64,000 bases of DNA from an uncultured Bdellovibrionales bacterium (GCA_964609855.1 CAZSTB010000002.1:15541-79540); one strand, 5' to 3'; positions 12,428-57,975 are shown, counted from the stretch's first letter. Numbers and translations: made by a program. The notes: generated by a model from the sequence alone, not told the origin.

Positions 12428-12749
12428 GCTGTTCACTGGTTTGATCTATTTTGTTTTCTTCATTGCTGCATGTTTCGGATGTTACGATTCTGCCTATAAT
12501 TATTACCGGAAAGTCAGAAAAAATGAGAAATGCGGTTGGTATTCATTCTCATTCAACGCCGGATTAGTGGTTTTTCAATTGCTAGGCCTGCTATTATCGG
12601 TAAAATTATCGAAGCTTCTGCTGCCAATACTTGGCACAAGGCATGACTTATTATGGACTATGGTAATGATCGCAATGTTCTTCGTGGCAAGCTCTTTGCT
12701 CTTGATTTTCTTTATCCGCAAAGGAAAAAGGAAGGCATTTGAGAATTAG
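12420..12749 (+). CDS. small membrane protein
   Basis: An AGGGAGGGGG Shine-Dalgarno precedes the gene, which overlaps the previous gene by 8 nt (translational coupling). Confidence 0.45.
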   Translation: MDELFTGLIYFVFFIAACFGCYDSAYNYYRKVRKNEKCGWYSFSFNAGLVVFQLLGLLLSVKLSKLLLPILGTRHDLLWTMVMIAMFFVASSLLLIFFIRKGKRKAFEN

Positions 12750-24930: not shown

Positions 24931-26310
24931 TTACTTGTTTAAGAAATCGCTCATAACCAAATCCTGATTCAAAAGCGTTGAAAAATCGTTTCGGCTACCA
25001 TCAGCATTTATTACATGCACAGCAATCGGCACATCATTTAAACCTGCTTGTTTTTGGATCTTAAAGTCGTATTCGGAATTTTTAATATTTCTAGGTAAAG
25101 TGTAATTTATTTCAACAGTCTTACTGGAATTTATTGGAACTTTCACGATTGAACTGAAAGACTTTTTACCAAATTCGTTTGCAAACTTTGCGCCGTCAAA
25201 ATTCTTGGAATCCTTAAGCCAACTTCCCTCTGGCACGTAGACGCGAAGATAGGTCAGATAATCTCTGGTCATCCAATCTTTTTGGCGCGCCGTGTGATTG
25301 TAGGTTATTTTTAAATTAGCAGTCGGAATTTCTTTGGAATAATCAGCATTGTATTCAATTGAACGGTTAACGTAATAGTCGCTTTTAAAAGCTCCGAGAT
25401 TTGCATCCACAGTCATTAGGTAATCATTACTCCACTGGCTATCAACTTGTCCTGCCCACCCGGATTTTTGAACAATATTTTGCAAATATTCATCATTGAA
25501 ATATAGTTGAATATCTTTTTTATTCAAATCTTGTAAAGTTATTTCTGCTAATTTTATTTTTTCAGACGAGGAAAGCGCAAAAATTCTTTCCTGAATTACT
25601 CTCGCCAAATCAGCCATAATGGATTTTCTTTCCCCTCTGTCTATACCCTGATCTTCGAAAGCTTTTTCAACTTGATATTCCAAGGCAATAACCGCATTTT
25701 CACTGTCGTAAGTTCCGGGATATCCTTCAACTGTGACCGGTCCGGTAATTTCCAGCATTGAAGAAAGCACGTTTGTAGTTACCCCGATTACACCGTCAAA
25801 GCGCTCTTGACCATCGCCCATGTAATAAAATTCTTCAGCTTTTTTTGCATTTACCGCGAAATCAGGAGAAAAGTTTGAATCTCTTAATTTCCAGGATTTT
25901 ATTCCCAAGGTTTCTTTCATGGGGTATGGTGGAGTAACTGTGTCAGGAATTCTGGCATCAAAATTTGAAAGATCATGCGTCTGCGAAAGTGTGATTTTTC
26001 CGTCTTTCATTTTCACGATACCAAAAGCCCCGATAAATCCGCCGCCGGGACGAATTTCCATATTGTTTTGAAAAAGCACTAAAAAGGTTCTTTCAACTCC
26101 ATCTTCTTTCATGAAATAATCAGCCAATGTAGCGACTGCTCCGAATTCTTTTTTCTGCTGCTCATTAAATGGCAAAAAATTTACCGCATTACTTACAGCA
26201 TTTCCAATTCCGACTTTTTTCGTCTCCAAAAATAAATACCAACCGGTCAAAAGAATTGCGGAAACAGTCCAAAATGTAATCCAGAATTTTATAGAATATT
26301 TTTTAGCCAT
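24931..26310 (-). CDS. DUF4012-domain membrane-anchored protein
   Basis: N-terminal TM helix, then the hallmark EIRPGGGFIGAFG motif. Confidence 0.7.
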   Translation of the reverse strand: MAKKYSIKFWITFWTVSAILLTGWYLFLETKKVGIGNAVSNAVNFLPFNEQQKKEFGAVATLADYFMKEDGVERTFLVLFQNNMEIRPGGGFIGAFGIVKMKDGKITLSQTHDLSNFDARIPDTVTPPYPMKETLGIKSWKLRDSNFSPDFAVNAKKAEEFYYMGDGQERFDGVIGVTTNVLSSMLEITGPVTVEGYPGTYDSENAVIALEYQVEKAFEDQGIDRGERKSIMADLARVIQERIFALSSSEKIKLAEITLQDLNKKDIQLYFNDEYLQNIVQKSGWAGQVDSQWSNDYLMTVDANLGAFKSDYYVNRSIEYNADYSKEIPTANLKITYNHTARQKDWMTRDYLTYLRVYVPEGSWLKDSKNFDGAKFANEFGKKSFSSIVKVPINSSKTVEINYTLPRNIKNSEYDFKIQKQAGLNDVPIAVHVINADGSRNDFSTLLNQDLVMSDFLNK

Positions 26311-32283: not shown

Positions 32284-32463
32284 AAAGATATTTTCGAGTT
32301 TTTTAAATAGTTTTCGCTTTTTAAATCTCCTGCTTTTAAATTTCCGATATATCTCAATTTAATGGCTGATTTTGCTTTAAATTGGGAATTTATTTGAAAT
32401 TTAACGTCTCCAAAAATCGACTTTACTATGACCATCTATTATAGCACATCTAAATGAAATTGT

Positions 32464-32507
32464 AAAGGCCCCACGTTCTCGATGAGAGGTGGGGCCTTTG
32501 GTTTTTT
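32464..32507. terminator. hairpin terminator (AAAGGCCCCAC…GTGGGGCCTTT + T6)
   Basis: Seen directly, immediately 3' of the GC-rich gene block on the minus strand. The T-run is on the plus side, so it may act bidirectionally. Confidence 0.5.
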
Positions 32508-32535
32508 AGCGAACATTGGGAGTCGCTACTTCTCC

Positions 32536-33606
32536 TTAATCCTTATGGCAGTTGGTGCAGACGTTCAGCTTGGCCGACGGGATGTTGAGATGGGCTTTGA
32601 TATCCTTGATATCCTTGTGCATCTCTTCAACCTGCGGCATCAGTTGACCGTTTTTACGCTTGGACTCTCCGAGTTTGTCATGGAGCGAGCGACCTTTTTT
32701 GCTTTCGCCCACGTTCTTGTCGATCCGCTTGACGTGTTTAAGCGTCTTACGGGTCTTTTGTTGTACAGACTTCTCGTCCGGCTCGTCTGACTTATCCGGC
32801 TTGCCGAGCGAGTCGAGCGTGATTCTTGCTTTTTGCTGCAAGGTGCGCTCCTCGACAGGCTCTTCAGGAGTCCACATGCCGACGGACCTTACCAGGTACT
32901 GGACGCCATTCCTGATCTCGACGATGCAGGGCTGGGTGCAGATGCCGCCTTTCCCATCGGGGCAAGGACCTCTGCGTTTGACGGTCTTTCTCGGGTACGT
33001 CGGCGGGGTGACTTTTCTGGGAGCTTCTCTGACGACCGGAGCCTCTCTCACAACAGGAACGTTTCCTACACAAGGGAAGATAACGGGTCTGCCGTCGATG
33101 CCGAGCTCATTTGCTGACGGCACATACGGCGCTCCGGGGCCAACGTACAGCAAGTACGTGCCGCCGGATTTTGCAATGCCGGGGTCAGTAATGCTTCTGG
33201 CGCATGCCAGGTTCTGACCGACCTGGATATTCCTGTCCGGAAGTCCCAGCCAAAGCGTATCAAACCAGTTTGCATCCTTGGCGAAGTTGACTCCACTCTG
33301 ACCGCCCCTGATCACTTCCATAGGGACATCCCAGTACTTCGTCAAACCTTCGGTTCTTGCAAACCTGGTCGGCAAGTTGGGGTCGCAACCCTCGCGCAGC
33401 TTGTCTGCGCAAAAATTGACGGCTTCATCTTGCCACATGTCTTCGGCGCACTGGTAGCGAACCGAATAGCGGACGAACTCCTGGTTGTTCACCAGGACGG
33501 GTTCAGCATTCACCACGGCTCCTTTTGCGAGCCAGAGCGGTTTTGCCTGAGCCGACGTTGACGCTAACATAAGCGCCGCGATTGCCAATAAGATCATCTT
33601 TTTCAT
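32536..33606 (-). CDS. GC-rich secreted Cys-containing protein of unknown function (ends …NVCTNCHKD)
   Basis: Signal peptide MKKMILLAIAALMLASTSAQA. Third codon positions are G/C-biased (about two-thirds G/C in a ~60-codon stretch tallied by hand). Confidence 0.6.
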   Translation of the reverse strand: MKKMILLAIAALMLASTSAQAKPLWLAKGAVVNAEPVLVNNQEFVRYSVRYQCAEDMWQDEAVNFCADKLREGCDPNLPTRFARTEGLTKYWDVPMEVIRGGQSGVNFAKDANWFDTLWLGLPDRNIQVGQNLACARSITDPGIAKSGGTYLLYVGPGAPYVPSANELGIDGRPVIFPCVGNVPVVREAPVVREAPRKVTPPTYPRKTVKRRGPCPDGKGGICTQPCIVEIRNGVQYLVRSVGMWTPEEPVEERTLQQKARITLDSLGKPDKSDEPDEKSVQQKTRKTLKHVKRIDKNVGESKKGRSLHDKLGESKRKNGQLMPQVEEMHKDIKDIKAHLNIPSAKLNVCTNCHKD

Positions 33607-33620
33607 CTGTGGTCTCCTTT

Positions 33621-34778
33621 TCAGTGTTCCATCTGGTCGATGGTTTGACTGGAAATTTGGATGCCGGCAGGTTTGGCACTTTGCTTACCCACCGGAGTTT
33701 CTTTTTTCTGAATCGTTTTGGCGCGCTTTTCAGCGTACCAAGTGGTGATGTCAGGAGTGGCCTCATAGGCAGCAATGATGCCGCCAAAAGGCCCAAGACC
33801 AGTGAACAGATTGGCCGTAAGACCAAGGCTGAACCTGTTCTTGTATTTCACCCTTATCGATGGCGCAAAACCGGTGAAGATGTCTCCGTCTAAGAAACCG
33901 ATACTCGCACCTGCTCCGGAAATAACCTTGTAATCCTTGTTAAGCTTATGTTCCCAGAATATTCCCGGGCCCACGAAGCTGTCATGGTCAAAGATACTTC
34001 CGTCCACCTGCAGCGTCAACCTGTTCTTATGGTTCAGGATATGATCGAACTGCACGTGCGGCGTGAGCATGACGCCATCTTTGCGGTTCATGTCGAACCT
34101 CCAGAGAATTCCCATGTCTGCCTCAAACGAGTTGCGCAGACCAAGACCTCTGTAGTATCCGACATGCGGACCAAGAGCATAGTAGCCCCAATCCGCCCCG
34201 CTGGGAGCGGCGCCGTAATCACCTCGGAGGCTTGCGCCGATACCGAAGTTTTCTGCCTTCTCATATCTTGTGAACCACTGGAGCCATTTCAGGTTTCCCC
34301 AAACGCCCCAGGTGTCGTGTTCGAAGTTCTTCCAGGCTCCGGTCCAGAACGAGACCTCAGGAAAACTTCCCCAAGTCCTTTGCTCTGGATTTTCGAATTC
34401 CGGAAGCGCTTCAGAAGCAGCTGGCGCGGGTTGAACTTCCGCTGGAGGTTCCTCTTTTAACAGAGGAGCTTCGAGCGGTGCAGCAGAAACAGTAGGCGCC
34501 TGCTCCTTAACTTCAGGAACAATCGTCGGCTCCGTCACTTGCTGCTCAACCACGGCAGGCGCTTGTTCCTTAACTTCAGGAATAATCACCGGCTCAGCTA
34601 CTGGCGTCTCAACCACTGCGGGTTGTTGAGGGATACTTTTGCCTCGCGCATATTCTGCGAGAGCAGCGTCCCTTCTTTTTGCTCTGACAGACTGCAGATC
34701 CTTACACGGATCTTCAGCTGCCGCCACGACACTGACCGAAGCCAGCATCAACAATATCGCCATGAGTTTTTTCATCAT
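33621..34778 (-). CDS. GC-rich secreted protein: signal peptide, Pro/Glu-rich tandem repeats (PEVKEQAP x2), then a W/G/Y-rich beta-rich domain
   Basis: MMKKLMAILLMLASVSVVAAA is the signal peptide. The domain has alternating aromatic/glycine patterning. The stop overlaps the downstream gene's start (ATGA). Confidence 0.6.
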   Translation of the reverse strand: MMKKLMAILLMLASVSVVAAAEDPCKDLQSVRAKRRDAALAEYARGKSIPQQPAVVETPVAEPVIIPEVKEQAPAVVEQQVTEPTIVPEVKEQAPTVSAAPLEAPLLKEEPPAEVQPAPAASEALPEFENPEQRTWGSFPEVSFWTGAWKNFEHDTWGVWGNLKWLQWFTRYEKAENFGIGASLRGDYGAAPSGADWGYYALGPHVGYYRGLGLRNSFEADMGILWRFDMNRKDGVMLTPHVQFDHILNHKNRLTLQVDGSIFDHDSFVGPGIFWEHKLNKDYKVISGAGASIGFLDGDIFTGFAPSIRVKYKNRFSLGLTANLFTGLGPFGGIIAAYEATPDITTWYAEKRAKTIQKKETPVGKQSAKPAGIQISSQTIDQMEH

Positions 34779-35770
34779 TTTCTCCTTTTCGCAACTGCTT
34801 GCGCAGCGGGCGTTGGTTTTGTTTCGGTCTTTGCTGGTTCCACCGCGGGTGCGGGTTTTTCGATTTCTCTCTTGGTTTGCAGGGCAGCAATTTCAGCATC
34901 TTTCTTTGCCAGCTCCTCGTTCAATTCGCCGATAAGCGTCTGACGAAGTTGACTGACAATTTCAAACATTGCCGAAGCTTCTGCTCCTGTAATTTCCGAA
35001 TAGAAATCCCAACCTTTTGGCGGAGACTTCACTGTCTCCCAAAGCGTGATGGAAGCCTTTGCAACCATTTCCACCGGGTTAAGTGAGATCACCATCCTGT
35101 TTCGCAGCACAAAGCGTTGGAAACCAGTGTAGCCAGGGTTGATTCTGGCGATTCTCTTCATGTCATCCTCTCCAAGCGGAGAATAGACTTCGCCGTAATC
35201 AGTCTTGTAACGGTTCCAGGACTTAACCTGGGAATAAAACCCCTTTACAAGATGCCGAGTGCCAACAGCAACTCCATATTTTTCAACCAGCTCTGCACGA
35301 TATTTCTTTTCATCATTGAATCGAATGCGATCGATCGGCACTAATTTTCCGCTTGACCAAGTGCAGTCTGTACGCGACGAAAGCGGAATGAACTTTGCGG
35401 ACTTGAAGTCCGAAAATTTTCCATCAATTATCACGAAAGACATGAACTCGCCGCTACGGTAGTTGCCAGCCAACACAAACTGTGCGAAAGCCTCCTCCCC
35501 TTTGGAATTCACACTCCATCCGGGAAAAGAAATTCTGCCAGCGCGCATCTCTCCGCCAATCTGAGAATCAGATATGGGTGCGTCAATGATTGTTACCTCG
35601 CCGCTTTCGATAGCCGGCGTAACCCGAATTCCAACTGCGAGTTCGGGGTAGGTTGTGAGCTGCAAGGGCTTCCCGAAATGGAGCGGCGCTTCTCTGATAC
35701 CCTCAGAGTGGGCGCAACCGAAAATCGGAAGAGCAAAACAAATTGCCAGAACTGCGAACATTTTTCTCAT
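34775..35770 (-). CDS. GC-rich lipoprotein with a C-terminal coiled-coil/Ala-Pro-Lys tail
   Basis: The signal peptide with IFGC lipobox-like cysteine is MRKMFAVLAICFALPIFGCA. The tail is …LNEELAKKDAEIAALQTKREIEKPAPAVEPAK…. Confidence 0.55.
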   Translation of the reverse strand: MRKMFAVLAICFALPIFGCAHSEGIREAPLHFGKPLQLTTYPELAVGIRVTPAIESGEVTIIDAPISDSQIGGEMRAGRISFPGWSVNSKGEEAFAQFVLAGNYRSGEFMSFVIIDGKFSDFKSAKFIPLSSRTDCTWSSGKLVPIDRIRFNDEKKYRAELVEKYGVAVGTRHLVKGFYSQVKSWNRYKTDYGEVYSPLGEDDMKRIARINPGYTGFQRFVLRNRMVISLNPVEMVAKASITLWETVKSPPKGWDFYSEITGAEASAMFEIVSQLRQTLIGELNEELAKKDAEIAALQTKREIEKPAPAVEPAKTETKPTPAAQAVAKRRK

Positions 35771-35902
35771 GGCTAATCTCCTGTATTTTTCAATCCTTTT
35801 AAGTTGTAAAGGTCCAACTCAGCTCAAAACGATTTCGAGCTTACCAGGAGACTCTGATATTACAATCCAGAGTCCCATAATCTACTCAAAATACAATGCT
35901 AG

Positions 35903-36655
35903 TTATTCGTAAATTTTAAAATCGCCCATATTTTCATTACTTTGAAAGTTACCCGCGGTTTCCATTCTTGAGAGTGGTGAGGAATTGATTGGAGACTCAA
36001 CATGCTCAGCCTTGGTTAAGTGAGCGAAAATTGATTTCCTTCGACGACTTTCACCATAAACCAAATACAGCACACTAAGCATGCTACCCAATATGAATCC
36101 TCCGATTGTTGTTGCTAAAATATTTGCAATAGATGGATTCTTTTCTACAACGGGTCCGGATAATACTTTCACATCGATATTCTGACCATCGCCGCGAAAG
36201 AGACTGTTTTTTGTCGTTAGCACTTCCACAACCGACTGCGAAATTGAAATCGCTTTTCGCTGATCATTTTCAAAAATTTCTATTCCAATGATTCCTAAAT
36301 CAGGATTGCGGGAAACTTCGACGATTTTGCTCCATTGTTTGAGTTTTTCTTTTTTATCAAATGGTAGAAATTCCACATTAACTTTTCCAGTCTTTATAAC
36401 CTCATCAATGAAAAGTTCACTGTATACAGCTTCATTCAATATTTTTCCGATATACTCTGCCGATTTGGAAAGCGTATAAAAATCTTGTGCCCCACCTTGA
36501 TTTTGCACAATCAGATAATCAGTACTCACCTTGTAATTTTTCTCCTTTGCTAAAAGCGCAAAGAATGAAAAAGCTGCAATCAGCAAACCGAATAATAAAA
36601 TTATTCCTGCTTTTTTGCTTATTAAGGCCAATATTCGCTTATATTCCATATGCAT
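35903..36655 (-). CDS. polysaccharide co-polymerase (Wzz/chain-length-determinant-like) protein
   Basis: N-terminal TM, ~180-aa periplasmic domain, and a C-terminal TM (TTIGGFILGSMLSVLYLVYG). Composition is AT-rich, like the host genome. Confidence 0.55.
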   Translation of the reverse strand: MHMEYKRILALISKKAGIILLFGLLIAAFSFFALLAKEKNYKVSTDYLIVQNQGGAQDFYTLSKSAEYIGKILNEAVYSELFIDEVIKTGKVNVEFLPFDKKEKLKQWSKIVEVSRNPDLGIIGIEIFENDQRKAISISQSVVEVLTTKNSLFRGDGQNIDVKVLSGPVVEKNPSIANILATTIGGFILGSMLSVLYLVYGESRRRKSIFAHLTKAEHVESPINSSPLSRMETAGNFQSNENMGDFKIYE

Positions 36656-36732
36656 TGATTCATTAAATGATAACTTACTATCTTAGCAGAAAAATCAAAT
36701 TTTGTCAATAGCAGGGCAACTTTAAAATTAAA

Positions 36733-36766
36733 TATAAAAAAAGGCGGGGAGAAATTTCTCCCCGCT
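36733..36766 (-). terminator. rho-independent terminator (GGCGGGGAGA-AATT-TCTCCCCGC + T-run on minus)
   Basis: Seen directly, 3' of the lipoprotein gene. Confidence 0.6.
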
Positions 36767-36777
36767 CATCGCCACTA

Positions 36778-37725
36778 TTAGTAGCGGATAAGTCCGTCGA
36801 CGCTGACGTTTTGCTGTACGCCGTTTACGAAAAACTCACACACGGTTGGATCCGTGTTGAATGAAACGAAAGTTCCGTCCGGCCTCACCAGATAAGGCAT
36901 GCCGGCTCCCGAAGCTTGCGTAGCATTCGCTAGAACCGTTGTCGGCAGAACTAGCGCTGTTACGACGCCAGCTGCAGGATACCAGGAACCGTTATCATTC
37001 CAGGCAATCCTGTACCCAGCGATAACGTTGCCCTGAGCATCCAACACGGTTTCACCCAGGATGCCACTGACGAGATTCAGAAGCTTTCCTGCTGCAATTG
37101 CTGGTGTGATGTCGATTTGTCGCGTGAGCGTGTTGATACTCACTCGGGTTTTCACGATTACAACAGGTGCTGCAGGGTCTATGATAATTGGCGCAGTTCC
37201 CACTGGCTGGACGGCTGCATATAGCAAACCGTCAGCTTTTCTTTCTGCTACCATGCCAGCACCTGCTTTGATTACGAGCCAGTTGGGGTCCGTAATCTGC
37301 GCGAGTTCCGTGCCATCGTCCAACACATAGCTGAAGTTGCCGCCGGACGCGCCAATGGGCTGACCCGCGATTTCCACTGCGAGCGTACTCGGGTCAAATT
37401 GCAGGGCGATTCCCTTGGTGCAGTCATCCCTGTGAAATCCCACCGCGCGGTCGTTCCAGTAGATTTTGTTGACCCTCCCTTTTTCTACAAACACCTCTGC
37501 CACGCCGTTTGAGGCATGAACGAGATACTCGCGAACAATCGCCGGCTTGAAGACGGTTTTATCCGCGTCCACAAGAAGTAATGCCTTTGCTGCGTCCGTT
37601 TCTCCGATGCTCGGTGTGGTTACTGAACTGACTGAACTGGACTTTTCGTCGCCGCCTCCGCCGCCGCATCCCATCAGTGAGACTGCCAAAAATGTCGCTA
37701 CTGCGCCTAAAATTAGCTTTTTCAT
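36778..37725 (-). CDS. GC-rich lipoprotein (lipobox LMGC followed by a Gly-rich linker)
   Basis: MKKLILGAVATFLAVSLMGCGGGGG is the signal peptide and lipobox. Third codon positions are G/C-biased. Confidence 0.6.
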   Translation of the reverse strand: MKKLILGAVATFLAVSLMGCGGGGGDEKSSSVSSVTTPSIGETDAAKALLLVDADKTVFKPAIVREYLVHASNGVAEVFVEKGRVNKIYWNDRAVGFHRDDCTKGIALQFDPSTLAVEIAGQPIGASGGNFSYVLDDGTELAQITDPNWLVIKAGAGMVAERKADGLLYAAVQPVGTAPIIIDPAAPVVIVKTRVSINTLTRQIDITPAIAAGKLLNLVSGILGETVLDAQGNVIAGYRIAWNDNGSWYPAAGVVTALVLPTTVLANATQASGAGMPYLVRPDGTFVSFNTDPTVCEFFVNGVQQNVSVDGLIRY

Positions 37726-37919
37726 ACTACCTCCCTTTTCTTTTTGATTGTTGTATAGCTAAAAACTAGGCCTCCTAAATCAAATTAAATTGTTCAAGTA
37801 CAACCATATAGTATACTCCTAATTTAGATATTTGTCAAGCATGAATAATTATAGCGAATATAAAAAACTTCACTTGAAAGTGAAGTTTTTTAACGCGCGC
37901 TTAGATTTCAAGAATCAGC

Positions 37920-39089
37920 TTATAATTTGACAGCAGTTTTTAACTCTTTCCCTTCACGGTCAATCAACAGTTCGATTTCATCACCCTTTTTAAATTGATT
38001 TATAACATTTGAAAGTGGGTTGTCTAAGTTTATATTTTGCCCGTTAACAGATATAATGATGTCATTTATCTTAAGACCTGCAATCTCAGCCGGAGAATCA
38101 GCAATGATGGCTAAATTTTGTTTTCCAGATGGTGACCATATTAGCGCACCCCTGTCGCGACTGATCTTATTGGCGATTGAATACTCTTTTGTAATGGAAA
38201 CATAATATGCACCAAGCATCGGGCGACTCTCAAAACCTCCACGCAAAACTCTGTCTAATGATTTCTCAATAGCAGCTGCTGGAATCTGAAAATATTTTTC
38301 CTTACCATCAATAGTCAGCATTCCAATTATACCGATAAGTTCCCCACTATACCCAATCACAGGACCTCCGATATATTCCTTTTGCTTTTGGAAATCATCT
38401 TCGAAAACACCCTCTAGTTTCTCAGAAGAAGCTACTGTTTTCCCGGCGAGATTAAAAGTCTTGTCAAGATTACTTAGCAGTCCTGATTCATAGCGGTTTT
38501 GGTATTCTCCAAATGAATTTCCAATTGCCACGATTTTTTTTCCCGGTCTCACGCTTGCGGAATCGGCCAGTGAGATAGCTGTCAAATTAGGTGCATCCAT
38601 CTTAAGATAGGCCAAATTAGAAAATTCATCGATTGCCACCAATTTAGCTTCGTAATAGTTTCCATTGAAAAGAAAAACGCTGTAGTTTGCATCTTCCTCT
38701 ATAATCGAATTACGATAAGTCACAATCATTCCATCGCTGGTAATTATAACGCCGGTACCACTTTGATTTACGGCTTTCAAATTTTTTGCTTGCATATCTT
38801 TTTGCGAGCTGACAGAAACGATATTCACCACAGCATTGGATGGTTGAGATGCAATTTCATTCACCGAGTCATCTTCCTTAATAATCACCTGCTCAGTTTT
38901 ATTGATAACCGTTACATTTTCAGCGGTTCTCTCAAGGAAGCTTATTTTGGATAAAACCTTATTGGTTCTTATGAGGGGCAAAATTTGTTGATCAAAATAG
39001 ACGCCTCCAATACCGCCAACAATAAAGATCAGAAACAGTGCAGCAATAATTTTCAGGGCCTTTTTCATTTTCATCATTTTTTCACTCAT
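37920..39089 (-). CDS. HtrA/DegP-family pseudo-protease (trypsin-like fold + PDZ, catalytic triad lost), membrane-anchored
   Basis: At the three positions where the adjacent true HtrA has TNKHVV / RDVAVIKV / GNSGGPL, this protein has TYRNSI / NLAYLKM / IGGPVIG. The PDZ region is retained. Confidence 0.7.
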   Translation of the reverse strand: MSEKMMKMKKALKIIAALFLIFIVGGIGGVYFDQQILPLIRTNKVLSKISFLERTAENVTVINKTEQVIIKEDDSVNEIASQPSNAVVNIVSVSSQKDMQAKNLKAVNQSGTGVIITSDGMIVTYRNSIIEEDANYSVFLFNGNYYEAKLVAIDEFSNLAYLKMDAPNLTAISLADSASVRPGKKIVAIGNSFGEYQNRYESGLLSNLDKTFNLAGKTVASSEKLEGVFEDDFQKQKEYIGGPVIGYSGELIGIIGMLTIDGKEKYFQIPAAAIEKSLDRVLRGGFESRPMLGAYYVSITKEYSIANKISRDRGALIWSPSGKQNLAIIADSPAEIAGLKINDIIISVNGQNINLDNPLSNVINQFKKGDEIELLIDREGKELKTAVKL

Positions 39090-42761: not shown

Positions 42762-44084
42762 TTATTGTTTTAACTCTTGTAATTTAACTTTCACATCTTT
42801 TGTTTGTCCTTTGTGCCAGATTTTTAAAGCAATTTCATCGCCGACTTCATATTTTACTATCATATCACCTAACTGATTATCTTTTGTAATCTTTTCTCCA
42901 TTAATTTCTAAAATAATGTCATTTTCGTTAATGCCGGCAATATCTGCAGGTGAGCCTGGAATTACTGCGAAATCAGTCAATTTATTTCCTCGCATAACCA
43001 AAACACCGTAATCGAAGGGCAATTGAGCTTCTCTTTGAACAATTGAATCAACCGCAATATATCTTACTCCAAGGTAAGGAACTGTCACCCTGACTCCTTT
43101 CTCAACCTGGTCAATTATGCGCTTAACTTGATTTACTGGCAATGCGAAACCCACATTTTGAGCTCCTTGCGCAGTAGCAACGTTTATCCCTATTACATTA
43201 CCTTCAATGTCTAAAAGTGGTCCGCCTGAATTTCCTGGATTTATCGCAGCATCAGTTTGGATGATATCAGTCAATCTCTCAGTCTCCCCAACGCGCGAAC
43301 CTGCATTCACATTTCGCTTCAAGCCTGAAACAATCCCCCTGCTCACTGAATTTGAAAATTCTCCCAACGAATTACCGATTGCAATGGTAGTTTGGCCGAT
43401 TTTTAAAGAGTCGGAGTTTCCCAATGGTAAAACTGGAAAATCATTGCCCTCAACCTTAATCACCGCAACATCTCTTACGGGATCTTGAGTTAAAACTTTG
43501 GCAACATATTCCTTGCCATCATTCGTGATTACTTTGTATTCCGCCTGCTTATCGCTCACCACATGCTTATTGGTTAAAATTAGACCATCAGATGTGATGA
43601 AAAATCCGCTTCCTGCCCCAATCTGCTGCTTCTGCTCCCCGTTATCATCATTATTTTCATCTCCGTTTTCAAATCCAAAAAATGGATTAAAAAAGAAAGG
43701 GTTCATAGAACTGGCAACATCTTTTGAAACAATGATGCTGACTACAGCTATCGAAGATTTTTCAACAACATCAATAACAGCTGAATCTTCAATTATAACC
43801 TGCTGCCTACTGACAACCGGATTTAAAGATTCCGATTTAAACATAGGCAAATACTCCCCGATTTTTTGTTCAAATTTTGGAGAAAGTACACTCACAATGC
43901 CAGCGGAAAAAAATCCAAACAGCGCACCAAAAAAGGATGACGCTACAATTGCAACAACCATCAATGCCAAAAGAAATTTTATACTCAGAGCTTTCTCGTT
44001 TTTTTTAATTTCCTTTGGCTTTTCAAAGATTTCTTTTCCTGTTTCCATATTCATGGTTAGAAAATTTATATGAGCCAGGGCCAA
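42762..44084 (-). CDS. htrA: HtrA/DegP serine protease with PDZ domain
   Basis: The catalytic His (TNKHVV), Asp (RDVAVIKV) and Ser (GNSGGPLL) are all present, with an N-terminal TM anchor. Confidence 0.85.
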   Translation of the reverse strand: MALAHINFLTMNMETGKEIFEKPKEIKKNEKALSIKFLLALMVVAIVASSFFGALFGFFSAGIVSVLSPKFEQKIGEYLPMFKSESLNPVVSRQQVIIEDSAVIDVVEKSSIAVVSIIVSKDVASSMNPFFFNPFFGFENGDENNDDNGEQKQQIGAGSGFFITSDGLILTNKHVVSDKQAEYKVITNDGKEYVAKVLTQDPVRDVAVIKVEGNDFPVLPLGNSDSLKIGQTTIAIGNSLGEFSNSVSRGIVSGLKRNVNAGSRVGETERLTDIIQTDAAINPGNSGGPLLDIEGNVIGINVATAQGAQNVGFALPVNQVKRIIDQVEKGVRVTVPYLGVRYIAVDSIVQREAQLPFDYGVLVMRGNKLTDFAVIPGSPADIAGINENDIILEINGEKITKDNQLGDMIVKYEVGDEIALKIWHKGQTKDVKVKLQELKQ

Positions 44085-48380: not shown

Positions 48381-48833
48381 CTACTCATACAATTGTAAAG
48401 CTCTTCTTTCATTGTCAGTACTTTCATTAAAGGACGCTTCACAAGTGACCCGCCGATGCGAGATGTTCATATCGAGAATATGACCACTGTTGATGAGTCT
48501 GAATTTCACTATTGACCCACCGGGGTCTTCGCCGATCCACCCATAATTAGTGAGGAGTATCACTTTCCCCCTACTGAGTTTGTTAGCTCTCGAGCTTATT
48601 TTTTCCAGCCACTCCTCCGAAATAGTATGCCCGTCAGCTATTTCCTCAAATCTTTTTCGCACAATCAATCTGGGAAATTTCTCCAGATTCGCGCAAGTAA
48701 AGTTTGCGATATCTATCGCCAGAGATTCGTCGATTTCCTCAAACTGATCCCTGTAGACCCAGTTTGAGTCATTGAAAGCAAAAACTTCCTGGGAAAACAT
48801 GAGCAGCATGAAGAAAAAAAGCACTCTCGCCAT
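48381..48833 (-). CDS. secreted hypothetical protein
   Basis: It has a signal peptide (MARVLFFFMLLMFSQEVFA). Confidence 0.4.
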   Translation of the reverse strand: MARVLFFFMLLMFSQEVFAFNDSNWVYRDQFEEIDESLAIDIANFTCANLEKFPRLIVRKRFEEIADGHTISEEWLEKISSRANKLSRGKVILLTNYGWIGEDPGGSIVKFRLINSGHILDMNISHRRVTCEASFNESTDNERRALQLYE

Positions 48834-48934: not shown

Positions 48935-50635
48935 CTAAATTCCTGTTACCTCAGCGGTATCCTCCCCAATAGTTTTCTTTGCCTTGAAAATTTTCCTTGT
49001 AACTGACTCAGTGAATTGAAAAAATTCTTTCACTTCAAGATAATAACTAGCTAAGGCGAAAGCTGCCACGCCGGTAGTGCCAGCAATTAGCATCTGAGTA
49101 AGAACTTCAATAAAGGTGTCTAGTTCTCCGCTTGTGCCGACAATTTTCTTAGCAATCTGCGCTGCCAATCCTCCAATCAATGATGCGGCAATTATTCTAA
49201 TAGTTGAATCTAAAATTAATTTACCGTCGATATTTGGCAACCTGCGCCTCAGAAAGAATAAAAGCAAAAACATATTCACGATACTTGAAAGGGAAAATGC
49301 AATTGCCAGACCAAACACAGGATTCCAACTTAAAGCTAAACTACTGCCGTCTAATAAATTTTGGAAACCTAAAACGGTACCAGGCCTTAACAGTAAAATA
49401 ACAGTCGTAATATTTATGGCTTCACTGACCACAGCGATATAAAGTGGGATCTTGGTATTTTGCAAAGCATAAAAAGCACGCGTCAAAAGAGGCAGAAGTG
49501 ACTGCGCGAACAAACTTGCAACCATCAGAGCGAGCACCTGAAAAGTTAAGATAGTGTTGTCCCAATTGAATTTTCCTGATCCTAAAAACACGCGTACTGT
49601 CTGCGCGCGTAGCACGAAAAGGAATACACTGATGGGAATCACAAAGAAAAGAATTTGTCTGAAAGTCTTAGAAAATATTCTAATAAACTGATTCTCATCC
49701 TTACGCGCAGCCAGAGCACTTAATGTAGGAAATACGGCTATGGAAAAAGAAACCCCAAAAAGACCCAGTGGACCGCTTTGAATATTATTAGCAAAATTAA
49801 ATACTGCCAGACTTCCGGTTGCCAAAGTGGATGCAAAAATCGTGATAATCGTAAAGTTGATCTGACTTACGGCAATAGTGAGTGTCCGTGGAATCATCAG
49901 CCTTAAAACCTTACGAACACTCTTATTACGCCATGCTGTAAAAAACATCGGTTTAAAATGAAAACCTGAAATTTTTACCGAAGGATATTGCACCAACATA
50001 TGCAAAAATGCGCCCAACACTATTCCCCACGCCAACCCGATTGGTCCCATCGTCTTAACGAAAAATAGTGCGCCGATTATAATTCCAGCATTATAAAAAA
50101 TCGGTGCGATGGAATAAACCAGGAATTTCTTATAAGAAACTAACGCTCCCCCAAAAATACCGCTAATTCCCAGCAGGAAAGGGCTTAAAAACATGATTCT
50201 AGTCAATGTCACTGTCAGTTCAAGTTTTTCGCCGCTATATCCAGGAGTAATAAACTTCATTAAAAACGGCGCAAACACAACCAACAGCAGCGAAGCTACG
50301 CCAGTAATTAATATCTGCAGACTCAAAATTCCGGAAGAAAGATCCCAAGCCTCGTCCTCCTTTTTTTCCGCAACTAGTTGCGTGAAAACAGGAATAAAAG
50401 CTGCACTCAATGCTCCAACAATCATGAGATTATAAATCAAATCTGGAATTCTAAATGCTGCGTAATAAGCATCCAGTGTATCACCAGCCCCAAATTGTCC
50501 CGCCAGAATGCGATCGCGTAAAAGTCCCAAAAGTCTGCTTGCAACGCCAGCCAATGAAATTATGAAAGCAGCAGCTGCTACGGATTGCGTCGGCCGTTCG
50601 TTTAAAATCTTATTATTTACGAATTTCTTTATCAC
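48935..50635 (-). CDS. murJ: lipid II flippase MurJ
   Basis: AAFIPVF, a 14-TM MOP-superfamily profile, and LLGLLRDRILAGQFGAGDTLDAYYAAFRIPDLIYN at the N-terminus. Confidence 0.85.
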   Translation of the reverse strand: MIKKFVNNKILNERPTQSVAAAAFIISLAGVASRLLGLLRDRILAGQFGAGDTLDAYYAAFRIPDLIYNLMIVGALSAAFIPVFTQLVAEKKEDEAWDLSSGILSLQILITGVASLLLVVFAPFLMKFITPGYSGEKLELTVTLTRIMFLSPFLLGISGIFGGALVSYKKFLVYSIAPIFYNAGIIIGALFFVKTMGPIGLAWGIVLGAFLHMLVQYPSVKISGFHFKPMFFTAWRNKSVRKVLRLMIPRTLTIAVSQINFTIITIFASTLATGSLAVFNFANNIQSGPLGLFGVSFSIAVFPTLSALAARKDENQFIRIFSKTFRQILFFVIPISVFLFVLRAQTVRVFLGSGKFNWDNTILTFQVLALMVASLFAQSLLPLLTRAFYALQNTKIPLYIAVVSEAINITTVILLLRPGTVLGFQNLLDGSSLALSWNPVFGLAIAFSLSSIVNMFLLLFFLRRRLPNIDGKLILDSTIRIIAASLIGGLAAQIAKKIVGTSGELDTFIEVLTQMLIAGTTGVAAFALASYYLEVKEFFQFTESVTRKIFKAKKTIGEDTAEVTGI

Positions 50636-50686: not shown

Positions 50687-53600
50687 TCAATTCTTTTCAA
50701 AGACCAGTCCAAGAAATTTATCCGTTTTCAGCTCAGTTTCCAACTTAGCTTGAAAATTTCCTGAATTGGCATTTTGAGGAAAACTCCATTTAACCTGGTA
50801 ATCAGAAGGGTATTCAACGACCGAAGAAAAAGCGCTGCCAAAACTTCCGGACTGTTTTTGAACTGCCAGTGAATATGAGTCGATCTGCTGCTTTTCACCG
50901 ATGGATACATTGAAAATCTTAAATGGCAATAAATATTTATATGTGATTGTCATACTTTCTCCAGGACTCACATAAGTCCAATTTGCAAAAACAGTTTTCT
51001 CATTTTCGTCATAAATATGAGTACCGGTTTCTTCGTCGATTATTTCAGTTTTTTCCAGCCGAACAACGTCGTCATCCCGCTTAAATCCAAGCGCGTCATA
51101 ATCTAAAGGTTGATTGTTTATTTCACGTGTCTGACCAGTTGCTTCAAGTAGTTTACTTCCCCTTGGAAGATATACTCGCATATAATTCGCATTCACTTTA
51201 TTAAACCACTCATATGGCGAATTTCCGCCATTATGCTTTCTAGTAATTTTAACTTCGTCAATCACACTTCCGTCTTCTTGAATTTTAGCAGCATGCTCAA
51301 TTCTTTCCTCAATCACAGCATCTGTCTTAAAACCGTTTATATTTGCATTTATCACGCTCAAATAATCTTTAGATGCAGGAATCACTTCTCCCGACCATCC
51401 TTGCTCTGAAATAAGTTGCTGCAGTTCAGCATTTTGAGAATAAAAAAGAATATGCTTCTCTTGTAGTCCAGATAAGAAAGCATCCGCCGTCCTGGAAATC
51501 GTGTCCAAGTTCTTATTATTTAAAAGTTTCTCTAAAATCAAGGGTGCTAAATCCGATAATATTTTCTTAGGCTTATTTTCCTGCTTATCATAATCAACCT
51601 CAACTTCATGTTGAGTGAGCTCCAAGAAATTCTCACTATCCAGCGTTACAGCATATTCCGACATTTCAATCGGTCCAGTTATCTTTAAAAGTTTTTCCAT
51701 CACAGTCGGAGTTATCGTAATGACGCCATCGGCGGTCGGGCCACCAGTTTTCTCATAAAAATAGATTGCTTTCTTTGCGGACATAGGAAAATCAGCAAAC
51801 CAATTGCTATCGTGCATACTCCAATTTGCGCTAATTTTCTGAATCGGAGCTGGTGGGACGATGCGGTCTTTTAATTGCCCATCAGGATTGAAAATTCCAT
51901 CTATAAAAAATTTCTTCACATGACCATTGGCGATATCCAAAAGTCCGTAACTGCCGATGAATCCACCTGTGGCGCGCATCTCGGAATTATTTTGAAATAA
52001 AAATAGATATTTCCTTGGTCCGTTTCCACCGAGCAAATCGACAAATATGTGATTATTACTGGAGAACAAACCAAGCATCATTCGGATTTCCGGCAATTGT
52101 TGCTTCAGCAGCAAAAATTTGTCACGTTTGTCTTCTGGCAAATCATCAATTGCAACCTTGTCGATATTTTCTTGCGCGTAATCAAGCTCAATCTTAGCAA
52201 CTGCAACATTTTTATCCACATCCTGAAAAACTTGCAGAAATGAAAGTTCCGCATCAGCTACGGGATTTTTTAATTGGGCGGACACTTTTGCGACATCACT
52301 CAGTGCTTTTCCGGCAGCTGCGAAATGTTTCCCAGCCTCAACAGCATTTTTTCCGGAAGAAATCTTTGAAGCAAACGGAACATAACGCGCAGCATCCAAA
52401 AGCACGCCGCCCATGTCATTAACCTGCTGAAAGCCGTCAGAAAAATTAGCATATGCCAAATCAAATTTCTGTGATGATTGTTCAAAATTTTGATTCGCAA
52501 TATCAGCAACAGCAGCATTTAGGTTCGAGAGTCCATCTTCACTTACACCCAGCACTCTTCCTTTCAAGCCGAATCCCTTACTTGCAAAAGAAATTCCACC
52601 AACACCCAATGATGCAACCATGGCAACAAATAAAAAGACTGCTAACGACCTCTGCAAATCAAAGCGAAATCCGAAACCTGCCCCTGAAAACATATCTTTC
52701 CAAGTAAAAAAATTATCTAATTTTTCCGTGCGCTTGCAGCCATTTTTTTTGCGCTTACTGAAAAGCAAACTTTTTTCAGGCTTTTTTTGAGCATCGGCAT
52801 TTATAGCTTTGGCATACTTTTCCGCCAAAATTCTTTCTTGCTCTCTTTGTTCTCGTTCTGCTAATACATAAGCCTCATTTTCTCTTCTTAGGCGTGCATT
52901 CTCAGTAGCCGCAATTCTCAACCTCTCTTGTTCCAGCAAAGCCTCTTTGCGTATCTGTTGCTCCCTCAAAGCCAGTTGTTGATTCTTCTCAGCAATTAAA
53001 GCTGCTTCCTTTTCCCTGTTTTCCATTTGGATTCTCTCACTTTCCAGTTGCTGCTGTTCGAAAATTCTTTGTTGACGCTCTATTAAGAGTTTGCGTTGCT
53101 GCTCTTTCTCTTGTCGCTGCAAAAAAGCAGACTGCTCAAATTGTTCTCGTTCCAATTGTAATCGCTCACCTTGAGCCCTGCGAACTAATTCCAACTCTTT
53201 TTCTTGTTTCTCAAGCAGCTTCCTTTCCTGCTCTCTTAACTGCTGAAGTTTGCGCCTTTCTGCAAGCAACAGCTCATCACGCTGTTTGTTTGCTCGCATG
53301 ATTTTTTGATTTTCCAATTGTTGCTGCTCAAGAACCCGCTTTTGATTTTCAATTAAAAGCTTATGCTCATCATCTCTCTGCCTGCGCTGCATCTCCCTAG
53401 CTTCACCTCTCTTACGAAAATCATTTAACAATTGAGCTTCTTGTATGTGCCGATAATTTGATTGTGCAGCGGGCTGAAAGTAATCATCATCATTTATATC
53501 AAAGATATCTTCCGGCATAATCGGCATCCTTTCATTTTCAGGCAGGTCGTAGTCAGCAGCAAAGGTACTGATCTTTCCACTATGATCAGCCTCGCAAAAA

Positions 53601-53728
53601 TTTTCCTCATAGCAGTGACTTTCTGAATTCTCCAGCCCAATAGCATTAATTTTTTTCCAATCTAAATCGCCCGCTTCATTCACGGGCCTCACATCAAACA
53701 TTTGAGGAATAATTTTATTTTTTGACAT
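50687..53728 (-). CDS. large DUF4012 protein with a cytoplasmic ~210-aa E/R/Q/K-rich single-alpha-helix-like region, one TM helix and an extracytoplasmic DUF4012 domain
   Basis: The SEMRATGGFIGSYG hallmark is present. Residues ~95-305 are highly charged heptad-less repeats (…EQQQLENQKIMRANKQRDELLLAERRKLQQLREQERKLLEKQEKE…). The TM helix is LAVFLFVAMVASLGVGGISFA. Confidence 0.7.
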   Translation of the reverse strand: MSKNKIIPQMFDVRPVNEAGDLDWKKINAIGLENSESHCYEENFCEADHSGKISTFAADYDLPENERMPIMPEDIFDINDDDYFQPAAQSNYRHIQEAQLLNDFRKRGEAREMQRRQRDDEHKLLIENQKRVLEQQQLENQKIMRANKQRDELLLAERRKLQQLREQERKLLEKQEKELELVRRAQGERLQLEREQFEQSAFLQRQEKEQQRKLLIERQQRIFEQQQLESERIQMENREKEAALIAEKNQQLALREQQIRKEALLEQERLRIAATENARLRRENEAYVLAEREQREQERILAEKYAKAINADAQKKPEKSLLFSKRKKNGCKRTEKLDNFFTWKDMFSGAGFGFRFDLQRSLAVFLFVAMVASLGVGGISFASKGFGLKGRVLGVSEDGLSNLNAAVADIANQNFEQSSQKFDLAYANFSDGFQQVNDMGGVLLDAARYVPFASKISSGKNAVEAGKHFAAAGKALSDVAKVSAQLKNPVADAELSFLQVFQDVDKNVAVAKIELDYAQENIDKVAIDDLPEDKRDKFLLLKQQLPEIRMMLGLFSSNNHIFVDLLGGNGPRKYLFLFQNNSEMRATGGFIGSYGLLDIANGHVKKFFIDGIFNPDGQLKDRIVPPAPIQKISANWSMHDSNWFADFPMSAKKAIYFYEKTGGPTADGVITITPTVMEKLLKITGPIEMSEYAVTLDSENFLELTQHEVEVDYDKQENKPKKILSDLAPLILEKLLNNKNLDTISRTADAFLSGLQEKHILFYSQNAELQQLISEQGWSGEVIPASKDYLSVINANINGFKTDAVIEERIEHAAKIQEDGSVIDEVKITRKHNGGNSPYEWFNKVNANYMRVYLPRGSKLLEATGQTREINNQPLDYDALGFKRDDDVVRLEKTEIIDEETGTHIYDENEKTVFANWTYVSPGESMTITYKYLLPFKIFNVSIGEKQQIDSYSLAVQKQSGSFGSAFSSVVEYPSDYQVKWSFPQNANSGNFQAKLETELKTDKFLGLVFEKN

Positions 53729-57252: not shown

Positions 57253-57375
57253 ATTTCTGTCATTGCAAGTTATCAATTTATTGAAAATTCAGTAGTACCA
57301 AATTCGAATTAATCTAATTTCGGCGACTTACCTTCAATCTTTACATCATACCTTAGCTTACTGATTTATGCACTA

Positions 57376-57403
57376 TTGACTTTTATGCAAAAAAACGTAT
57401 AAT
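57376..57403 (+). promoter_or_regulatory. sigma70-like promoter (TTGACT-16-TATAAT)
   Basis: Seen directly, about 60 nt upstream of the small gene at 57465. Confidence 0.45.
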
Positions 57404-57464
57404 TTCATTCTATTGTTCTTTTTAAGTATCTTTAAATGTATTCACTTGAGCAAAGGAGGTTACC

Positions 57465-57680
57465 ATGAGCAGAAAAGAGATTTTAGAAAATCTAGACGCA
57501 TACCTTTACGGCAACCGGACAATAAATTTACTCAAATTCAAAGACGGAAAATGTTTTCAAGCGGACTGCATAATTTTCGCTGAAGATGGCCCGGAAGCTA
57601 AACTTGAAGCGGTAGATGATGAACATCCTGACGGGTATTTTTTCACCATCGAAGATATAGAAGTTCTAAGGGTCTATTAA
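57465..57680 (+). CDS. small acidic hypothetical protein (71 aa)
   Basis: An AAAGGAGG Shine-Dalgarno lies 6 nt before the ATG, and a promoter sits upstream. Confidence 0.45.
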   Translation: MSRKEILENLDAYLYGNRTINLLKFKDGKCFQADCIIFAEDGPEAKLEAVDDEHPDGYFFTIEDIEVLRVY

Positions 57681-57975
57681 ATGGCAATCAAGATGAGAGG
57701 CATTGATCAATGCGACACTTTCTAATACCAGCAATTCCCTCAGGGTTTAGTCATGCGAATTTAACTGAACCTTTTTTCAAATAAAAACTCATTTCAATAA
57801 AAACGTCATACTGCCCATATGCTCGCAGACTTTCAAAATATTAACGTTACATTCTCTAAAAAGTGATTCCTAATCAAAGGAAAAGTGGTCAGTGATGAAA
57901 TATGCCAATCAAAAATCTGTATGAATAGCAGCCTGTCTACGGCATCCAATCATAGTTGAATTAAATACATCTCTA

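Follow-up and report, generated by a model that had tools for sequence, protein, structure and literature searches.

Genes of the locus and their base composition

The DNA analyzed here is a window of 64,000 nucleotides (nt) deposited under the name of an uncultured Bdellovibrionales bacterium (GCA_964609855.1, CAZSTB010000002.1:15541-79540), and this study concerns five of its genes, designated A to E, which encode exported proteins and are richer in guanine and cytosine (GC) than the genes around them. A sequence-only reading of the window had pointed to four of them between positions 32,464 and 37,725 and to a fifth at 58.1 kb, and had proposed either the lateral acquisition of a surface-protein cassette, for example from a diderm neighbor or host, or a separate class of cell-surface proteins whose codons are selected differently. 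The five genes, and the wzz-like gene that lies among them, are the following (GC3 is the GC content at third codon positions).

32536–33606, minus strand: gene A, secreted protein with a beta-sandwich, a Cys-rich segment, helical repeats and a C-terminal CxxCH; GC 0.549, GC3 0.664
33621–34778, minus strand: gene B, signal peptide, helix, Pro-rich linker, predicted 12-stranded barrel, helix and tail; GC 0.524, GC3 0.549
34775–35770, minus strand: gene C, lipoprotein with lipobox IFGC, first gene of the C-B-A operon; GC 0.488, GC3 0.494
35903–36655, minus strand: wzz-like gene, GC 0.363, without a Shine-Dalgarno (SD) sequence, outside the class and marking the 5′ boundary of the cassette
36778–37725, minus strand: gene D, monocistronic lipoprotein (LMGCGGGGG) between HtrA and wzz; GC 0.534, GC3 0.557
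58113–58901, plus strand: gene E, lipoprotein with lipobox LTGC, on the strand opposite to the flanking GT4 genes and with the same GC and SD marks; GC 0.513, GC3 0.624, counted from the ATG at 58113

The base composition of these genes was compared with that of the 56 other open reading frames (ORFs) of the window, which had a GC content of 0.380 ± 0.031 (maximum 0.438) and a GC3 of 0.357 ± 0.056 (maximum 0.503). The data showed that genes A–E exceeded this background with z values of 3.4–5.4 for GC and 2.4–5.5 for GC3. Measured per 1 kb, the GC content of the window was mostly 0.31–0.45, with peaks of 0.53 at 33–35 kb, 0.47 at 37–38 kb and 0.48 at 58–59 kb. It changed abruptly at 32.5, 35.8, 36.7 and 37.7 kb, tracking the ends of the coding sequences (CDS), and the intergenic spacers within the GC-rich region had a GC content of 0.30–0.38. 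These values confirm the raised GC and GC3 that had been noticed in genes A–D, with an AT-rich wzz-like gene between C and D, and the fifth gene noticed at 58.1 kb corresponds to gene E, which shares the pattern.

Every synonymous codon family in A–E leaned toward G or C, most strongly in the shift of NNY codons to NNC, while the Ala codons were nearly unchanged. In the use of C-ending NNY codons all five genes ranked within the top six of the 61 genes, and the share of NNC increased from 0.25 in the background to 0.68 in A–E for Asn, from 0.24 to 0.59 for Ile, and from 0.30 to 0.63 for Phe. The context of the next base was ruled out as the cause of this usage (NNC 0.52–0.77 versus 0.22–0.39). 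At the protein level, Gly, Ala, Pro, Thr and Val were enriched, and Ile, Phe, Leu, Lys and Asn were depleted. The dinucleotide signature, normalized for base composition, also deviated from that of background 5-kb blocks (delta* of 85 versus 35 ± 12, z = 4.3). Hence, genes A–E have the atypical composition and codon usage that is one of the marks of genomic islands.

The GC jumps at 32.5, 35.8, 36.7 and 37.7 kb could also be produced by a chimeric assembly or by mis-binned fragments of a GC-rich contig. The independent Logan assemblies of runs SRR446576 and SRR446577 contained, with 100% identity, the region from HtrA to D (contig L001) and the region from wzz through C, B, A and Wzy to the glycosyltransferase (GT) gene (contigs L003 and L004), and so gave all junctions but one. 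The sole junction not spanned by them lies in the spacer between wzz and D, where L001 and L003 meet and are estimated to overlap by ~15 nt, and both this junction and the gene order recur in other genomes. Because the independent assemblies of two runs and the synteny agree, the chimeric assembly, for which the sequence-only reading had advised a check, was rejected and is in our view barely conceivable.

Conservation of the locus among Moranbacteria

Homologues of B (22), A (14) and C (17) were all located on contigs of Candidatus Moranbacteria, Parcubacteria or "uncultured bacterium ACD", and a profile search with B against 1.84 billion representative proteins returned 34 related clusters only. 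The proteins of the cassette were 30–87% identical to those of the window and always occupied the same locus. The order HtrA–(lipoprotein)–wzz–(C)–B–A–Wzy–GT–beta-helix was found in at least 11 distinct Moranbacteria-type genomes (L005–L011, L013, L024 and L025/L026, with a partial match in L023). The comparison with close relatives that had been suggested in the sequence-only reading thus showed the locus occupied by homologues in every related genome retrieved. The wzz-like gene, whose product has a weak Wzz match in Pfam (E = 0.059), stood beside the cassette in those related genomes whose contigs reach that far. Two of the contigs, L006 (CAYVME010000008.1) and L007 (CAZMNQ010000008.1), are labeled "uncultured Bdellovibrionales bacterium" and contain all of the Moranbacteria-type locus with its gene order unchanged. 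The ACD contig AMFJ01002925 is nearly identical to L006, and the taxonomic labels of L006 and L007 are probably wrong.

No tRNA gene (ARAGORN), no Rfam family at the gathering threshold and no mobility gene or integrase was found in the window (positions 1–64,000). Relatives of B, C or E were not found in IMG/VR, and A–D had no match among the PHROGs. An 18-nt direct repeat with an 83% match (GGNCCTTTACAAYTT, coding strand) brackets C-B-A at 32457–32474 and 35801–35818; both copies contain a TTTACA −35-like box and may simply be similar promoters, and no significant flanking repeat was found beyond this two-copy match. A phage or mobile-element origin was rejected, given the lack of viral relatives, of PHROG matches for A–D and of tRNA genes, and the promoter-like character of the sole repeat. 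The signs of a recent island, which are absence from relatives or a variable site, and flanking tRNA, integrase or repeats, were likewise not found at this locus.

To describe the GC excess across genomes, the A, B, C and D-like genes were compared with their flanks in ten genomes. The cassette genes exceeded the flanks by 0.088 in GC, by 0.085 in GC1 and by 0.089 in GC2, each difference being positive in all ten genomes, while the excess in GC3 was 0.089, with a range from −0.02 to +0.21 of which the window is the maximum, and was positive in nine of the ten. The use of C at two-fold NNY codons and of G at Lys, Glu and Gln codons was raised in 10/10 genomes. When the cassette proteins were recoded with the codon usage of the flanks, the amino-acid composition alone contributed +0.04 to +0.075 GC in every genome. 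Codon choice made up 54% of the GC excess in the window and −52% to 55% elsewhere, with 35–55% in six genomes and no contribution in three. Because 54% of the excess is due to codon choice, an explanation by amino-acid composition alone was rejected for the window. The GC-richness is a conserved property of this gene class, and it consists of two layers, one of amino-acid composition and one of synonymous G/C-ending codons, the latter varying among lineages.

The behavior of gene D bears on the persistence of this bias. The GC3 of D is 0.56 in the window and 0.63 in L026, in comparison with 0.32–0.46 in the adjacent wzz and HtrA genes, and its synonymous sites are saturated, as they are in the nearest outgroups. 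The fact that D keeps a high GC3 at 52% protein identity suggests that the bias is maintained or renewed, and is not a single decaying relic.

Shine-Dalgarno sites of the gene class

Each of the genes A–E is led by a strong SD sequence (AAAGGAGA, AAGGGAGG or ACAGGAGA), with energies of −7.4 to −12.4 kcal/mol against the anti-SD sequence, including ACAGGAGA before C (−7.4 kcal/mol), AAGGGAGG before D (−12.4 kcal/mol) and AAAGGAGA before E (−8.9 kcal/mol). Among the 56 other genes of the window, 51 had no SD sequence and five reached −6 kcal/mol, with a median of +0.4, so that strong sites were present in 5/5 genes of the class versus 5/56 of the rest. The genes for wzz, Wzy, HtrA, GT, ClpB, L9 and LepA had no comparable site. 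This is the reverse of the host-like SD sequences ascribed to the class in the sequence-only reading. In nine other genomes the cassette genes had a mean energy of −8.65 kcal/mol versus −1.85 kcal/mol for the flanks (p = 5e-11), and strong SD sequences preceded the cassette orthologues in all 10 genomes compared. An anti-SD motif is reported to be detectable in only 48% of Parcubacteria (PMC9297842), which fits the SD-poor background of the window and makes an SD-rich gene class notable.

Lateral exchange of the C-B-A operon

Genes C, B and A are closely packed. The stop codon of C (TGA) overlaps the start of B in the sequence ATGA, which suggests coupled translation, and B and A are 14 nt apart; this agrees with the three-gene operon proposed from the sequence alone. 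The true start of B is probably the second ATG, at 34775. The operon was compared with contigs L026 and L025, which come from one sample and abut in the repeat-encoded linker of B, and the comparison delimited the following unit.

32503–35894, minus strand: laterally exchanged unit, consisting of C-B-A, the upstream spacer and ~30 nt past the A stop, defined by blastn identity

The DNA identity of the window to L026/L025 was 81–83% inside 35894–32503 and ~65–68% outside it on both sides (blastn), and the edges of this span lie 9 nt after the wzz stop and 33 nt after the A stop. At the protein level, C, B and A were 87, 83 and 84% identical to their counterparts in L025/L026, with synonymous differences, expressed per identical residue, of 0.33–0.39. 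In the upstream flank, TM284, HtrA, D and wzz were 70, 71, 52 and 67% identical to L025/L026, with synonymous differences of 0.54–0.61, and in the downstream flank Wzy and GT were 58 and 70% identical, with synonymous differences of 0.51–0.54. In all other genome pairs A and C were no better conserved than the flanks, so that higher constraint cannot explain this pattern, and the operon shares a more recent ancestry with that of L025/L026 than its surroundings do.

A further case of decoupled histories at the same locus was provided by L024, whose flanks were 60–72% identical to those of relatives, while its cassette was 30–40% identical to every other one, and so represents a second deep allelic class. 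In a third class, seen in L023, a B gene with a LysM domain followed by an A-like gene comes directly after wzz. These data show that C-B-A has moved between lineages of Moranbacteria as a cassette, and that the copy in the window shares recent ancestry with the copy of a lineage having a GC-richer background. They also divide the four genes that had been taken as one insertion, as C-B-A is one unit, D occupies a separate lipoprotein slot, and E lies at a third site.

Exchange at a fixed site is well known from the replacement-type flexible genomic islands and serotype cassettes of the O-antigen and capsule, which are exchanged by recombination in conserved flanks. C-B-A is similar to them in its fixed site between conserved genes, its divergent allelic classes (L024), one clear swap (L025/L026), its atypical composition and its position inside a polysaccharide and envelope locus. 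The difference is that it encodes a lipoprotein, a predicted barrel and a secreted protein and not glycosyltransferases, that it is GC-richer and not AT-richer than the genome, and that its breakpoints are at the operon ends and not inside the flanking genes.

The predicted barrel of protein B

To describe the structure of protein B, a model was calculated with AlphaFold2 (AF2) from a 22-sequence alignment, and strands were assigned by DSSP. A cleavable signal peptide is followed by a conserved basic helix (residues 26–46) with the motif RAxKRDAxLxxY, a Pro-rich linker predicted to be disordered (residues 48–128), and a short predicted helix (131–135). Residues 136–340 are predicted to form twelve long antiparallel strands closed into a barrel, with a predicted local distance difference test (pLDDT) score of 83–97, after which come a helix (344–355) and a conserved tail of ~30 amino acids (aa) with the motif I.ISEKTIDEM. 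All twelve strands have a dyad pattern, with a family-mean Kyte-Doolittle hydropathy of +1.04 on one face and −1.14 on the other, which corresponds to a hydrophobic lipid-facing surface and a polar lumen, as judged from the sequence and the DSSP strands and not from the model coordinates.

At the level of sequence families, B had no Pfam, NCBIfam or PHROG match, and a profile search of the PDB gave 0 matches at E up to 1; one distant member of the family had a sub-threshold match to PF13505 (22 bits, with a cut-off of 28.7). In four distant members a LysM peptidoglycan-binding domain stands in place of the N-terminal helix region, which suggests that the N terminus anchors the protein to the wall and that the linker spans to the outer layer. 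No SLH domain was found in the ~30 B members scanned. Four homologues (P0008, P0011, P0013 and P0019) contain an extra conserved domain of ~80 aa between the N-terminal helix and the linker (…GYPEEISKALA…KNGxLxxGSTLxW…, alignment columns about 70–190), which is not matched by Pfam and could be a further module for binding to the wall. The linker of B is partly encoded by a tandem repeat:

34494–34616, minus strand: 63-nt tandem repeat, two copies with an 81% match, encoding the Pro-rich linker of B

The assemblies of related genomes break or are frameshifted in this linker (the gap between L025 and L026; L010 and L011). In the GTDB representatives L010 (9977–11204) and L011 (9720–10888) the B gene is split, and it is intact in the metagenome versions L015 and L014.

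By its predicted fold, B would belong with the 12-stranded outer-membrane barrels. The closest layout is that of FapF, the amyloid-secretion channel of Pseudomonas (PDB 5o65), which is built from a coiled coil, a linker, a plug helix and a 12-strand barrel, and has a CxxC-bearing repeat substrate. The corresponding parts of B would be helix 26–46, the disordered region 48–128, the short helix 131–135 and the barrel, all of them predicted. However, B had no sequence homology to FapF by Pfam, NCBIfam or PDB profile search (5o65 was not recovered), partners like FapA, FapB, FapD or FapE are not present here, and neither Pfam nor NCBIfam gave a match for A, C or D. The repeats of A are rich in Lys, Glu and Gln and predicted to be helical, which is not amyloid-like, B runs on past the barrel into a helix and tail with no aromatic end, and the host is a bacterium of the Candidate Phyla Radiation (CPR).

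Sequence identities of 5–11% to B were obtained for the autotransporter barrels of BrkA (3qq2), Hbp (3aeh), AIDA-I (4mee) and NalP (1uyo), and for the 12-stranded channels COG4313, KdgM and NanC. In contrast to autotransporters, B has no passenger domain, as only the helix and linker of ~110 aa precede the barrel, and it has no beta-signal and no autotransporter or outer-membrane domain from Pfam. Another likeness is to OmpM/SlpA and to the Omp-alpha/beta "toga" of Thermotoga, which tether barrels to the wall in diderm Terrabacteria (10.1101/2021.05.31.446380; PMC10160955). In these systems the barrel is joined via a long spacer, running through a periplasm-like space, to a wall-binding N-terminal module, on the same chain or on an operon partner, and the LysM domain at the N terminus of distant B relatives is a point of similarity. 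On the other hand, B contains no SLH domain, and in place of a coiled-coil stalk its spacer is Pro-rich and predicted to be disordered. Since B lacks the sequence-level and accessory-gene features of each of the systems compared, it would represent a new family with a known fold.

The other exported proteins

Signal peptides in A and B, and lipoboxes in C (IFGC), D (LMGC) and E (LTGC), were recognized in the translations, which bears out the exported character of the proteins, and the absence of recognizable domains held for A–D in Pfam, NCBIfam and PHROG. Protein A has a cleavable signal peptide and an N-terminal beta-sandwich domain (residues 22–180), for which a fold search gave only generic Ig-like sandwiches (Z ≤ 5.4). 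Its C terminus, VCTNCHKD (32536–32565), contains a CxxCH motif that is also C-terminal in 13 of 15 homologues, beside the barrel gene. This is the heme-c attachment motif, present once per protein, and no cytochrome domain was found by Pfam; the motif could be a heme, metal or disulfide site. Its position next to the barrel gene led us to compare the pair with porin-cytochrome complexes, whose cytochromes usually carry several hemes. Protein C consists of a conserved globular domain of ~270 aa, a C-terminal helix (ELNEELAKKDAEIAAL) and a basic Pro/Ala tail; its 17 homologues have a mean column identity of 58%, and no Pfam, NCBIfam, PHROG or PDB profile match was obtained.

In protein D a variable N-terminal half is followed by a conserved domain of ~130 aa at the C terminus. 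The protein is 52% identical to D of L026 while the flanks are about 70% identical, and in other genomes its slot holds unrelated CGGGGG lipoproteins, which makes this a hyper-divergent position. The N-terminal 110 aa of E match phrog_3135, a phage lipoprotein family without assigned function (E = 3e-6). A match of E to the BamE domain (E = 0.08) was sub-threshold, and we place no reliance on it. No relatives of E were found on the related loci retrieved. Gene E stands between two GT4 genes, within 57277–58979, and is preceded by 836 nt of AT-rich spacer in which an SD-led ORF of 71 aa (57465–57680) is located; this region is possibly a small inserted module.

Other features of the window

The remaining features that touch on the gene class are the following.

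32467–32496, minus strand: likely terminator of C-B-A, hairpin GGCCCCAC-N14-GTGGGGCC followed by TTTACAATTT
36744–36765, minus strand: strong intrinsic terminator after D, GCGGGGAGAAATTTCTCCCCGC followed by T7
37810–37838, minus strand: promoter-like site upstream of D, TTGACA-17-TATACT, 11/12, by consensus match only
48381–48833, minus strand: possible extra member of the class, secreted 150-aa protein, SD of −9.5 kcal/mol, GC 0.433, GC3 0.503
2254–2679, 4012–4419, 5386–5967, 11392–11832, 12014–12427, 12420–12749 and 57465–57680, plus strand: small ORFs led by strong SD sequences

The GC hairpin on the side of A overlaps the −35 box of a promoter-like site of Wzy (TTTACA-17-TATAAT, 11/12 match). 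The possible extra member has an NNY-C share of 0.46, which gives it intermediate marks of the class, and no Pfam match. The strong SD sequences besides those of A–E mostly belong to small ORFs of unknown function on the plus strand, which is the minority strand, and the conserved minus-strand genes are nearly all without one; in this genome an SD sequence seems to be the mark of a smaller, possibly accessory, group of genes.

The surrounding 40 kb form an envelope-biogenesis locus with MurJ, two DUF4012 proteins, GT4 glycosyltransferases, rfb-type genes, two HtrA paralogues and a PrsA-like protein. The window as a whole is a large envelope super-locus that also holds at least five GT4 genes, Wzy, the wzz-like gene, the beta-helix protein and dTDP-sugar genes, and one of the DUF4012 proteins is 1013 aa long. 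The stretches referred to are the following.

24931–26310 and 50687–53728; 48935–50635; 42762–44084 and 37920–39089: parts of the super-locus, the genes of which are nearly all on one strand

The cumulative GC skew declines steadily over the window.

Discussion

The explanation toward which we lean, with only slightly more confidence than doubt, is that A–E are native, lineage-specific envelope genes of Moranbacteria (Parcubacteria, CPR). The amino-acid layer of the GC excess would reflect the make-up of extracytoplasmic, barrel and linker-rich proteins, and the synonymous layer, together with the SD sites, would reflect expression-linked selection on envelope proteins that are presumably abundant. 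In the window this contrast would be amplified by the lateral swap of C-B-A with a lineage of GC-richer background (flanks 0.40–0.44). Proteins A, B and C, with the variable lipoproteins D and E, would form a surface-exposed outer layer, in which B may be a wall-tethered 12-stranded barrel or pore on a Pro-rich linker extending from an N-terminal anchor helix, and surface exposure would drive both the diversification of D, the A repeats and the B linker and the swapping of the cassette. A distinct cell-surface class under different codon selection is thus the better supported of the two proposals of the sequence-only reading, as the orthologues are GC-richer in 10/10 genomes and have strong SD sequences in all, with codon selection as the presumed cause of the bias. 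Codon bias is also a property of the highly expressed E. coli envelope genes ompA, ompC and lpp. Genes A–E resemble these in that they would encode exported structural envelope proteins and in their strong ribosome-binding sites, own terminators and preference for C over U at NNY codons, but differ in that their bias includes G-ending codons and is not shared by L9 of the window.

Several observations weigh against this explanation. Ribosomal L9, the only ribosomal protein gene in the window, as well as ClpB and LepA, show no such bias. The four-fold sites are inconsistent across genomes, and L005, L010 and L013 show no net effect of codon choice, a pattern that variable selection and import with later amelioration would explain equally well. 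The G-ending codons of Lys, Glu and Gln also rise, which is atypical of translational selection, and an Akashi-type test gave a weak trend, with odds ratios of 1.20–1.25 at two-fold and 1.01 at four-fold sites, and p values of 0.08–0.29 for the window only. According to published work, no anti-SD motif could be detected in roughly half of the Parcubacteria (PMC9297842), and for this genome the 3′ end of the 16S rRNA lies outside the data. In B there is no terminal aromatic beta-signal, as its last strand, FGGIIAAYEA, continues into the helix and tail, and its membrane location is a prediction only.

The synonymous excess could instead be the residual composition of donors, if the cassette and the lipoprotein genes have been imported time and again from relatives of higher GC content, or from some unknown GC-rich reservoir, and ameliorate slowly in the AT-rich recipients, so that the SD sequences and dinucleotides would also be donor marks. 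The direct evidence of C-B-A movement between lineages is in favor of such import, as are the GC-richer flanks of L025/L026 (0.40–0.44, with GC3 up to 0.58), a background of L023 that may be about 0.47, the delta* value (z = 4.3), and the contribution of codon choice, which lies between none and 55% depending on the genome, as it would if the imports took place at different times. The SD-led genes also look foreign in an SD-poor genome, where several of the others are small accessory ORFs on the minority strand. However, the GC content of the cassette is above that of its flanks in all genomes examined, the GC-richer ones among them, no genome was found with a background matching the 0.52–0.55 of the cassette, and the names of Moranbacteria metagenome-assembled genomes imply, by what we take to be their naming convention, a genome GC of 33–45%. 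The two copies of D, 52% identical and synonymously saturated, both have a GC3 of 0.56–0.63, the two-fold sites are G/C-enriched in 10/10 genomes, and the family is confined to this clade; we therefore regard import as the main source of the bias as unlikely. A more remote source, the recent acquisition of a surface-protein island from a diderm neighbor or host, would account for the atypical composition, codon usage and dinucleotides, for the strong SD sequences and own terminators, and for a fold in B that is found in Gram-negative outer membranes. It is very improbable given that the homologues occur solely on Moranbacteria- and Parcubacteria-type contigs, at 30–87% identity and at the same locus, that matches to outer-membrane families are absent or sub-threshold (none for B in Pfam, a weak PF13505 match, an empty PDB search), that no integrase, tRNA or viral carrier and only the 18-nt two-copy repeat was found, and that the AT-rich wzz gene splits the supposed island. 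The lateral acquisition suggested earlier thus holds for the exchange of C-B-A among Moranbacteria, and loses support for a diderm or host source because of the clade-restricted homologues and fixed locus.

GC-biased gene conversion offers another route to the same bias, if surface genes are recombination hot spots under diversifying selection in which AT-to-GC changes become fixed at degenerate sites. In favor of conversion are the demonstrated exchange of C-B-A by recombination, the increase of C- as well as G-ending codons in the window at two-fold and four-fold sites, and the extension of the bias over the whole gene, without distinction between conserved and variable sites. On the other hand, the GC step ends exactly at the CDS ends, the spacer between wzz and C has a GC content of only 0.38 although it lies inside the exchanged tract, and wzz, located between D and C, has an AT-rich composition in all genomes. 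The NNY shift (logit of about 1.6) is twice the NNR and four-fold shift (about 0.8), four-fold sites are not enriched in four genomes, and the conserved SD sites would be left unexplained. We consider gene conversion to be a decidedly unlikely cause.

CPR bacteria (Patescibacteria) are regarded in the literature as monoderms that descend from a diderm ancestor through the loss of porins and outer-membrane tethers, and the literature searched contained no account of beta-barrel envelope proteins, or of a gene class marked by SD and GC, in CPR. An outer-membrane-type barrel is unexpected in bacteria thought to have no outer membrane, and given that its fold is otherwise typical of diderm outer membranes, B may be an ancient diderm heritage. 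As a tentative proposal, which we think possible but doubtful, some Moranbacteria may not be simply monoderm and may have a wall-tethered outer layer, the core of which would be barrel B, assembled without a recognizable beta-signal. This layer could be toga-like, a remnant of an outer membrane, or a pore in the host membrane at the episymbiotic contact. Its genes would constitute a separate translational class, SD-led and rich in G/C-ending codons, in genomes otherwise largely without SD sequences, and the core operon would act as a surface "serotype" cassette that lineages trade with each other.

The surface molecules of CPR bacteria are almost unknown, yet it is the surface that mediates their obligate attachment to the host. 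A conserved, confidently predicted barrel with a putative wall anchor and partner lipoproteins provides concrete candidates for such molecules, and bears on the question of the transition from diderm to monoderm cells. The signature of SD sequences and G/C-ending codons could pick out envelope and surface genes across thousands of uncultured genomes, and the gene class offers a natural test of whether synonymous GC is kept up by selection, by biased gene conversion or by transfer.

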